A stretch of DNA of 64,000 nt, from assembly GCF_013167455.1 (NCBI RefSeq), contig NZ_CP038328.1; one strand, given 5' to 3'. Shown in pieces: positions 53,801-56,800 of the stretch. Position 1 is the stretch's first letter. Every line of letters begins with the position of its first letter. The DNA comes from Escherichia coli O157:H7 (GTDB lineage Bacteria > Pseudomonadota > Gammaproteobacteria > Enterobacterales > Enterobacteriaceae). Made by a program: the position numbers.

Positions 53801-56800
53801 ATAAAGTCGGGGATCTGTTCCTGAAGCGCCTTATACCAGGCGGCAATTTGCGCTTTAAGCGCGGCGGTTAATGCCATGAGAAAACCTGAAATACTGTATA
53901 AACAGCCAATATTGTGGCATTTTTCGGTTTTCAGGGGTAATGGTTTTTCTGTTTCTGGAAAGCGGCTCGCAAACACGCCCTCTCGCAATATATTTGATTG
54001 AAAATTCGACGGCACAGTGAGCGCCAGTCTTCAGGGCAGAAAACAGCAAGTGATACCGCATTTCGTGGTTACAATTGCCGCCGTCATCGCTTCGCAGGAA
54101 CCGGTATTGCCGACCCTGGCCTGAGCCAGGGCCATCAATGCCATTATTCTGCTGCGATCTTTACAGCCATGCGTCTGGCGTCCACTCGGATAAAACTTTA
54201 GAAAAACGATATTGTGCATAGCGGACCATATCACGATATAACGAACTTATGCGCAACTGGTTGGCCTCTTCATTAGACAGATTATTGAAATCAAGCAATA
54301 CCGTTTTGTATGTATTAAAAGTTTGATTGCTTATCATACTTTCATCTAAAGAATGAGCTTTCGCCAATAAAGCAAATGCATAACGTTTTAAAGTTTTTGA
54401 CGCATCAGGAATACCGTTAAAGACATTACTGTGAGAAATATTTGCAAATACGGCAGACAGGCAGAAAAATATTTTAGACTTATCACTTTCACTGGCATCA
54501 TTGAGATCCAGCATCGTTAATAGATTAGCGTAATGTTTATCTTTCAGAGTATGCTGTTGCCATTGATCTGAATCGTTCATCAAAGAGGAAAATGATGAAT
54601 TAAGTTCTGTCGGTTGATTATTGCATTCGAGCACAAAATCTGTTTTTCGCATTATTGCTGACATAAATATATCACGAATATAACCTTTGAATCCAAGAGC
54701 ATTGAGGATCAATTGATGTTTCTTATTTTTCTGCGCATATTCCCATCCTTTTGCAAATAAAGGAAATGCACGCATACAAATCGTTTCTGGATCATCTCTG
54801 ACAACTTCATGGGTATCCTGCAAAGATGGATAAATAGAGTAATTATTCCAGATAGTCTTTTTCTTAACCTCTGGCTCAAGCATTGAGATTAACGCCTGGT
54901 GCGATAAGCGCATTACTCGCCCAGAGTTATCGGATGATAACAGGATATAACATTTATTATCTTTATCTAACAATCCTTGCTGCTCATTGAAATTCAATTT
55001 AATTTCTTCAGTAACGAATTGTTTTATTTCAGATAATGAAAGATAATTGTGATAAAGGTCAAATGCTAAGTTTTTCTCTTCAACATTTCCGTTTTCAAAA
55101 AGCAAATCAATAAATTGAATAAATCTATAATTTTCAGCAACCATCAACTCTGGTCTCTTTAAAAAGAGGGCATGGAAAAAGTTAATTATTTCCGCATTGT
55201 TATTCAGATTTTTATTTCTGAAGTAGCACAGATACGTATCCAGTGCGCGCATAACAAGTTCATGATCGCTATTAAGTGGGGATTTTATTAATTTTGCTAT
55301 TATGGTTGATGGGAATGCCACTATGTCCCGCAGCGCGAAGAGCTCCATGCCATCAGTTAATTGCGTTAACAGATCTTTTACTGTTTGTATGTTATCAGTA
55401 CTATCATTGAAAGATTCGTCTGCCAGAGAATTCAGTTTTTCTATCATCCCCCCGATTACAAATATATCTTTTTCGCTCTCCACGTCATGATTAGACATAT
55501 CATCGACGATATCTTTAACTTTACTATCACTTTCAAATAGTTTTTCTCTCACAATATTATTAGCGTTTACTGCAGAAGTTGCATCATAATAGGATGGCGG
55601 AATAATAACAGAGAATTCGTTAGTGAATATAGAATGATCTGCAAGATTATCATCATTCAATTTCTCGCCAACATTTAGCGAATTAACAGTCCTCAGAATA
55701 TGCATCTCAATCTGACTGTCAGAAAGACTTTTAGAAAAACCACTACCTTCAGTCAGTTCAATTTTCATCCTGAGTATTTTATTTTTGAGGTCGGGAAATG
55801 TATTTACATAAGGAATAAAAACATCTGATGAATTAGAGTTGTTTTTCTTTCCATTAATATTATCTATTCTAACGGTGATCCCTTTCTCATCACGAGGAAT
55901 TGCATCATTCATATTTATAGAGATCACATTTTCATGTCTGGATTGCCCGGTTTTAATCGTCATATTGATATCATTTGCGCTGATCTCCGAAATCTCACTG
56001 ACGAATTTTTTAAATGCATTATAGCGCTGGTGGCCAGCATTAAATTTGCCAAATGAAACATAATATGCGAAATGTTCAAGGAAACCATGTAATTCCAGTA
56101 AATTAACCGGGTCAGAACCCTGCACCATATTTAATAACATCGTCGCATAACCATTGCATTTTGAACAATCCATACATCGCTCCTTTGCACTTGAATGATC
56201 TGCGAATCATAAGCCTGGCAAAATGGGGAGTCTTACAGAAATCGCTCATTTTTAACTTTTCGTACTGCAAATTCAGGATCAACCTGGTTATGAAAGTTTG
56301 CTGCTGTACGGCTCTAAACAGACTGGCAATCAATCTTTCTATCAATAAGCTGAAATGAGCGATTTTTGATAGTTTATTAGAACTACTAAAGATATACGGT
56401 AATGAAACGACTGCACACTTTATTTTGCTTAGGGAGATAGTCGGATACACTATAGACAATGAAAATAATAAAATCAGGGACAGAATCAAGCTAATACTGA
56501 ATCACATATCTCATAATAATTTACCAGATGATGAACAAACTCTTTATGCAATAGCATGTTTATTCCAGATTTTCCCAGAATTTGTTTATGAATATCAACC
56601 AATGTTATTAACAATAATTCAAATTGCAAGGAGAAATAATTTCATTGCCATTTTAGATACACTAGATAGATCATAAAGCAAATTTATTAAAACAATAAAA
56701 TCAGACATGTCATGCATGTCTGACCGTGTTACCTGAATAATGGGCAAAAGCCTGTGATACTCTTTTGCCCTTACATGGTATTACTGCGCAGCGGCAGGTT

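Follow-up and report, generated by a model that had tools for sequence, protein, structure and literature searches.

In Escherichia coli O157:H7 a gene carried by an island lies directly upstream of the SOS-regulated helicase gene dinG and in the same orientation, and the question raised by this locus is whether transcripts of the island gene run on into dinG and ybiB, or are held up by LexA bound in between, as was proposed in a preliminary description of the window (the whole stretch of 64,000 nucleotides of contig NZ_CP038328.1 that was analysed). Read-through on a large scale would link an operon for a DNA-repair helicase to a virulence island, in EHEC as well as in lineages related to it, and would provide a small example of regulatory rewiring through island insertion. 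The evidence, however, points the other way, towards a dinG promoter block that behaves as a robust self-contained module, unchanged through at least four upstream rearrangements. It is probable that the interval between the two genes represents the junction of an old, horizontally acquired replacement island with a self-contained dinG promoter, and that dinG-ybiB is driven essentially from that promoter.

The genes of the locus can be named with the help of other O157:H7 genomes. A query of 2.7 kb (53700-56400) is 100% identical to many E. coli O157:H7 chromosomes, and the RefSeq annotation beneath this match consists of espX2, described as a type III secretion system effector, and dinG. In strain PV15-279, which has an identical locus, rhlE, espX2, dinG and ybiB follow one another in this order on one strand. 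In the window all four are found on the minus strand, rhlE at 56781-58148, espX2 (ECs0876 / Z1019, 670 aa) at 54161-56173, dinG (ATP-dependent DNA helicase) at 51727-53877 and ybiB, which comes second in the dinG-ybiB unit, at 50737-51699. The identity of espX2 is based on RefSeq, Pfam and PDB matches, that of dinG on its ORF and RefSeq, and that of ybiB on its ORF and the RefSeq annotation of the identical O157 locus. The ATG of dinG is at 53877 (complement 53875-53877); a 762-aa ORF that reaches up to 54015 is a mechanical upstream extension only. The gene previously described simply as an island gene is therefore an annotated type III effector gene, espX2, which has been reported as ECs0876 on S-loop 57, a segment absent from K-12 (PMC2323221). 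It had been claimed that a 670-aa ORF co-directional with dinG ends about 280 bp before the dinG start, and this holds, the ORF being at 54161-56173 on the minus strand and the gap from the espX2 stop to the dinG ATG measuring 283 bp (53878-54160). The statement that ybiA is divergent from dinG in K-12 is borne out as well, with a gap of 119 bp between them. When K-12 was checked for the arrangement seen in O157 it was found to differ, the divergent ybiA occupying the position upstream of dinG.

The product of espX2 carries a SopA-like C-terminal domain. It scores 57 bits against Pfam SopA_C (cut-off 25), and among PDB entries it matches the structures of SopA (E 2.6e-14) and NleL (E 2e-12); with 83.6 against a cut-off of 500 it stays far below the NCBIfam SopA subfamily. 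In a phmmer alignment the SopA motif FTCTS, the Cys of which we take to be the catalytic residue of the C-lobe, is placed opposite LRISS of EspX2, with Ile facing Cys. The C-lobe catalytic cysteine of SopA/NleL-type HECT-like E3 ligases is accordingly lacking from EspX2 in this alignment, the posterior confidence of which is low at that place.

The island itself extends over 53976-56780, is about 2.8 kb long and of low GC, and stands in place of ybiA; besides espX2 and a 3' flank of 185 bp it contains the stump left of another gene. In the alignment with K-12, identity is perfect from inside dinG to about 53975 and no similarity is found past that point, and on the rhlE side similarity restarts exactly at the rhlE stop codon, 56781. 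By this replacement about 0.7 kb of K-12 DNA, namely ybiA with its ribosome-binding region and a spacer that contains REP sequence, has been displaced. The GC content is about 33% over espX2 versus about 52% in the flanks, and about 50% in the 185 bp that lead from the espX2 stop codon to the junction. An atypical composition is thus combined with absence from K-12 at the same site, as in a horizontally acquired genomic island (O-island / S-loop). Hallmarks of mobility were also looked for: there is no tRNA gene in 48000-62000, no repeats are present at the junctions, and no integrase gene lies between rhlE and dinG, where only espX2 and the gene stump are found.

The distribution of the island among 5,426 complete E. 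coli genomes speaks for a long residence. It is carried by 541 of them, always at this site and with up to 8% divergence, and on these grounds it is considered old and stably tolerated. Carriers include O157:H7, O145:H28, O169:H41 and several unrelated human and animal isolates; the island is not confined to EHEC. Full-length ybiA was found in 3,432 of the 5,426 genomes, and other states of the locus exist besides. In the B2 strain LF82 ybiA is reduced to a 198-bp pseudogene remnant, and in strain ST865 almost all of it has been lost, with rhlE lying head-to-tail upstream of dinG. Some espX2 strains (ST2747, E200086 and PapM-32-1) possess a longer island with an extra divergent gene of 561 aa. 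The O157 island is a 1,465-bp deletion derivative of this long form, and at 56365-56676 on the plus strand it keeps a 3' stump of that hypothetical gene, which is intact in the long form. The upstream (promoter) region of espX2, at 56174-56387 on the minus strand, is common to both forms according to blastn against ST2747. A scan of GTDB species representatives for relatives of EspX2 returned one short contig only, which is 98% identical to E. coli and filed under a ‘Clostridium’ MAG; the scan gave no information on other species.

On the dinG side of the junction lies a conserved block of 98 bp (53878-53975, minus strand) that appears to hold the promoter, operator and leader of dinG. In alignments it is base-for-base identical across four structural alleles, those of K-12 (with ybiA), LF82 (ybiA remnant), ST865 (ybiA deleted) and the espX2 island, and the alleles part within about 25 bp beyond it. 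Because the block is invariant in all four, the regulation of dinG would be independent of whatever stands upstream, and because the junction falls 98 bp away from its ATG, dinG keeps an intact promoter, LexA box and leader. The block can be read as a complete and presumably selectively maintained dinG promoter/operator/leader, upstream of which DNA may be freely exchanged. A scan for sigma-70 consensus promoters yielded 10 matches compared with 10.3 expected from shuffles, none of them in the gap, and as the count hardly departs from the shuffle expectation, the scan is unable to place the dinG promoter or any new one.

Within the block, the LexA (SOS) box of dinG, 20 bp in length, is found at 53892-53911, between the 670-aa ORF and dinG, precisely where it had been put beforehand. 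The plus strand reads TACTGTATAAACAGCCAATA there, the reverse complement of TATTGGCTGTTTATACAGTA, which on the minus strand is identical to the motif listed as the K-12 dinG SOS box in a UV tiling-array study (PMC3009722). K-12 and every aligned allele have the same 20 bp. They do not form the canonical CTG-N10-CAG palindrome, the right half being CAG and the left half TTG. The TTG half-site is already known for the dinG box and owes nothing to the island.

How far the two genes are transcribed can be taken from published expression data. For strain EDL933, Table S4 of PMC4048457 reports logFC with a normalised level in parentheses, the latter being assumed here to be the RPKM of the paper. 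Over 11 conditions the level of espX2 (Z1019) is 2, 0, 0, 2, 1, 1, 0, 0, 0, 2 and 1, and that of dinG (Z1020) in the same conditions is 6, 6, 0, 7, 7, 6, 5, 10, 6, 5 and 1 (PMC4048457). In this data set, which is shallow (0.7-3.3 million reads per condition) and covers conditions that are not strongly espX2-inducing, dinG is at least as high as espX2 in all 11 conditions and stands at 5-10 in most of them (PMC4048457). In minimal medium dinG reaches its maximum of 10 with espX2 at 0, and in LB-antibiotics dinG rises by 1.9 logFC (PMC4048457).

A second data set comes from PA20, an O157:H7 strain identical to the window over 53700-56400. After 5 h of 27x SMX-TM (sulfamethoxazole-trimethoprim, which is SOS-inducing) dinG is raised by 1.60 log2 (p 3e-6), that is about 3-fold, and neither espX2 (+0.56, p 0.32) nor rhlE (+0.35) changes significantly (PMC5931665 supplement). 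After 12 h of SMX-TM rhlE, espX2 and dinG are each raised by about 1 log2 (PMC5931665 supplement), a joint rise which is compatible with some co-transcription. In O157, by the published dinG data, the gene downstream of the LexA box is induced by DNA damage. Taken together, the published levels argue that O157 transcribes dinG for the most part from the gene's own promoter, which is LexA-controlled, damage-inducible and untouched by the island. They also suggest that the traffic from espX2 is too low to account for more than a minor share of dinG transcription under the measured conditions, with room left for a conditional contribution.

The proposal that LexA acts as a roadblock may be weighed at this point. 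According to it, LexA at the predicted box (53892-53911) would stop polymerases arriving from espX2, and read-through would reach dinG only after LexA cleavage. The box does stand in the path of any read-through, which confers positional plausibility only. Repressor roadblocks are usually leaky, and with a left half-site of TTG instead of CTG and a dinG induction of about 3-fold, the predicted box may well be a weak operator and hence would make a poor roadblock. The upstream traffic that it would have to stop is moreover very low, with espX2 at RPKM 0-2, and a LexA roadblock is consequently held to be very unlikely. Still harder to credit is the idea that transcription of espX2 occludes the dinG promoter and lowers dinG in island-bearing strains. 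The tandem arrangement is the sole point in its favour; espX2 expression is far too low for such an effect, and dinG is both expressed and SOS-inducible in O157.

What a polymerase leaving espX2 would meet is the 185-bp 3' flank (53976-54160, minus strand), an island-specific segment occurring only in espX2 genomes. It is found as one copy per genome in 541 of the 5,426 complete E. coli genomes, at 92-100% identity, and the same number of genomes have at least 80% cover of the espX2-dinG query; from the equal counts it follows that the flank travels with espX2. Small ORFs within it were examined and rejected as purely mechanical, and because strain differences in the best candidate frame alter an amino acid, the flank is treated as apparently non-coding. 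Against Rfam, even with a permissive E-value, 53700-57000 gave just one chance miRNA match, inside espX2.

By folding, two hairpins are predicted in the flank on the minus strand. The first (54111-54134) is GC-rich, with a 10-bp stem and a 4-nt loop, and can be extended to 54103-54142; as a 33-nt hairpin it has an energy of -20.8 kcal/mol, or -22 to -24 kcal/mol with the outer extension included. The tail behind it is GGCAAUACCGGU, without a U-tract, so that of the two parts of an intrinsic terminator the stable GC-rich stem-loop is present and the U-tract directly 3' to it is missing. Its core of 8 bp is retained in 7 of 8 lineages, and in strain AST215 the energy is down to -10.8 kcal/mol. 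The preliminary description had noted a modest hairpin without a U-tract near 54110-54131: the hairpin is real and does lack the U-tract, but its stem lies at 54111-54134 and at -20.8 kcal/mol it is anything but modest. Nor is it the only hairpin between the genes, as had been stated, since a second one with a U-rich tail was overlooked.

This second hairpin (54045-54079) is followed by GUUUUCUG (54037-54044), the whole (54037-54079) forming a weak intrinsic-terminator-like site. Its stem is imperfect and its loop of about 20 nt is oversized and structured. The energy is -8.5 kcal/mol in O157 versus -14.7 kcal/mol in most lineages compared, and the weakening in O157 is due to a single substitution at 54074, an O157:H7 SNP that breaks one pair. 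The plus strand has A at this position and C in the other 7 of 8 sequences, so that the minus strand carries U in O157 where the other lineages of the comparison carry G.

Scans for further signals gave little within the gap. A consensus terminator scan found no terminator-like site in 53878-54160, and one just downstream of rhlE (56725-56699), a hairpin with a T-run on the minus strand at 56699-56725 which marks the rhlE-side edge of the island. As regards Rho, the island 3' flank does not look like a rut-like tract (C-rich, G-poor, about 80 nt, unstructured and untranslated), with a C/G of 0.74-0.88 and a structured RNA (z = -2.9); a C/G of about 1.5 is reached only in the conserved dinG promoter block. 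The covariation term of RNAalifold over 8 lineages is close to 0, and the flank therefore offers no evidence for a selected RNA structure.

It could be supposed that the 185-bp flank is an effective insulator, at which practically all espX2 transcripts are ended by the GC hairpin acting with the second hairpin or with Rho, the two units being fully independent as a result. The retention of the strong hairpin in 7 of 8 lineages would agree with this, as would the U-tail of the second hairpin with its -14.7 kcal/mol in most lineages, the constant company of flank and espX2, and the window of C over G (C/G about 1.5) across the dinG promoter block. Such a role is at odds with the lack of a U-tract behind the strong hairpin, the empty terminator scan in the gap and the lack of covariation, and also with the decay of the strong hairpin in AST215 and the weakening of the second one in O157. 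Full insulation is thus a possible but rather doubtful reading.

With no canonical terminator and no apparent rut-like tract in the island flank, read-through is physically possible, and from the make-up of the gap some read-through from espX2 is likely. The explanation we prefer is that, as in K-12, the LexA-repressed promoter of dinG-ybiB itself would account for essentially all of its transcription, and that the espX2 transcript, for want of a canonical terminator, would probably have heterogeneous ends. At the strong GC hairpin some espX2 transcripts may come to a stop or have their 3' ends stabilised, others may stop at the weak hairpin with the U-rich tail, and still others may continue into dinG. 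As espX2 is barely transcribed in the measured conditions, we infer that read-through would amount to a small, LexA-independent trickle into dinG.

The stronger claim, that read-through from espX2 materially feeds dinG-ybiB and so couples dinG and ybiB to the virulence regulon or gives them LexA-independent expression, is unlikely. The idea of read-through put forward in the preliminary description survives in that such transcription is physically possible, espX2 and dinG being co-directional and the island flank being devoid of a canonical terminator and of any apparent rut-like tract; a meaningful effect does not agree with an espX2 RPKM of 0-2, never above dinG (0 against 10 in minimal medium), or with an induction at 5 h of dinG but not significantly of espX2. 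Any such transcript would also have a hairpin of -21 kcal/mol and a weak U-tailed hairpin in its path. Two observations fit a material contribution and run counter to the preferred explanation, namely the O157 SNP at 54074, by which the sole hairpin with a U-rich tail is weakened, and the joint rise of about 1 log2 in rhlE, espX2 and dinG at 12 h of SMX-TM. A further version can be formulated for the approximately 10% of E. coli with the island: transcripts from the espX2 promoter, or from spurious promoters in the AT-rich espX2, would cross the gap and give rise to LexA-independent, virulence- or H-NS-linked expression of dinG-ybiB, with the SNP at 54074 increasing the leak. This we consider quite unlikely.

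Compared with known systems, the locus shows much that is familiar. The K-12 dinG-ybiB SOS operon is shared, with few or no differences in dinG, in ybiB, in the 98 bp before the dinG ATG or in the 20-bp LexA box, and dinG is likewise SOS-inducible in O157; the difference begins beyond the 98 bp, where the espX2 island takes the place of ybiA and the REP spacer and the neighbour is co-directional instead of divergent. With intrinsic terminators the gap shares a GC-rich stem-loop just downstream of the espX2 stop codon, but the strong hairpin has no U-tract, and in the U-tailed one the stem is imperfect and the loop structured and too large. A stable GC hairpin without a U-tract in a 3' untranslated region also recalls REP-type or other 3'-UTR stabilising stem-loops, and by this analogy the strong hairpin could plausibly serve as an exonuclease barrier. 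The 185-bp flank is not a repeated element, however, since it occurs once per genome, and no match exists between it and the REP sequence which K-12 has in this interval.

All parts of the arrangement are already described or annotated: dinG-ybiB as an SOS unit with its box, espX2 as a non-LEE effector on S-loop 57, and ybiA as a K-12 gene absent here. Hundreds of RefSeq records display the order espX2-dinG. Read-through between the two genes is discussed in none of the papers that literature searches brought up, a silence to be explained by the absence of any motive for such a study and not by a concealed phenomenon. Real as it is, the arrangement is an ordinary one, and a functional consequence, unsupported by the data gathered here, is probably minor. 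The locus is the same as Sakai S-loop 57 with espX2 (ECs0876), from which it shows no difference. What the present comparison contributes to the knowledge of S-loop 57 is the precise position of the junctions, the longer island of other lineages and the frequencies of the alleles; its practical value lies in having the junction and the alleles of the locus cleanly mapped.

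At this locus the K-12 interval 832237-832971, which carries ybiA, is replaced by the low-GC island at 53976-56780. The product of ybiA is a NADAR-family enzyme for which the removal of ADP-ribose from guanine in DNA has been reported (PMC11125620). The full gene was found in 3,432 of 5,426 genomes; the B2 strain LF82 retains just 198 bp of it as a pseudogene remnant, and in ST865 it is almost entirely deleted. The 98-bp block of dinG promoter, operator and leader (53878-53975) is identical base for base across all four structural alleles (K-12, LF82, ST865 and the espX2 island) and eight divergent strains, and the island flank adjoining it differs by up to 8% between strains. 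If a putative ybiA promoter lies inside this block, its transcripts would in the present arrangement run antisense to the terminal part of espX2, the type III effector gene of the island (54161-56173, minus strand). An exact 12-nt direct repeat, ATGGTTTTTCTG, has one copy in the dinG promoter block (53940-53951) and the other near the rhlE stop codon, within the 3' end of that gene (56861-56872); since both copies are located outside the island junctions, it is probably due to chance.

Between espX2 and dinG there is a single hairpin with a U-rich tail, and one of its base pairs is lost through a substitution at 54074, where O157:H7 alone among eight sequences compared has a plus-strand A and the other seven have C. 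With the O157 substitution the folding energy of this structure changes from -14.7 to -8.5 kcal/mol. Downstream of rhlE, two island-borne hairpins (56699-56770, minus strand) stand where K-12 has a REP element. In O157 the first of them is formed by GGGCAAAAG and CUUUUGCCC, and the second comprises a terminator-like stem followed by a T-run. In the long form of the island, known from ST2747, E200086 and PapM-32-1, both hairpins are situated between two convergent genes, rhlE and a hypothetical gene of 561 aa (WP_025210321.1).

This gene is intact in the three long-form strains and divergent from espX2 (an intact counterpart is located at 6643-8328 of locus L010), and only its 3' stump is left in O157 (56365-56676, plus strand). 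The O157 island is a derivative of the long form by a 1,465-bp deletion, and the alignment blocks on either side of the deletion point share an overlap of about 23 bp. In ST2747 espX2 itself (locus L006, 3686-5697) is annotated as a frameshifted pseudogene, with the 283-bp gap and dinG intact.

The C-terminal domain of EspX2 (residues ~540-669) resembles that of SopA, scoring 57 bits with Pfam SopA_C, and the structures of SopA and NleL are matched as well. The cysteine of the SopA FTCTS motif is aligned with isoleucine in EspX2 (LRISS), in a weakly aligned stretch; EspX2 may therefore not be a cysteine-dependent E3 ligase. A further copy was noticed in a 1,776-bp contig of a Hadza gut metagenome (CAKVEW010000088.1), binned as 'uncultured Clostridium sp.'. 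Its protein is 98% identical to E. coli EspX2 and the espX2-dinG flank is included; the contig almost certainly comes from E. coli and was binned wrongly.
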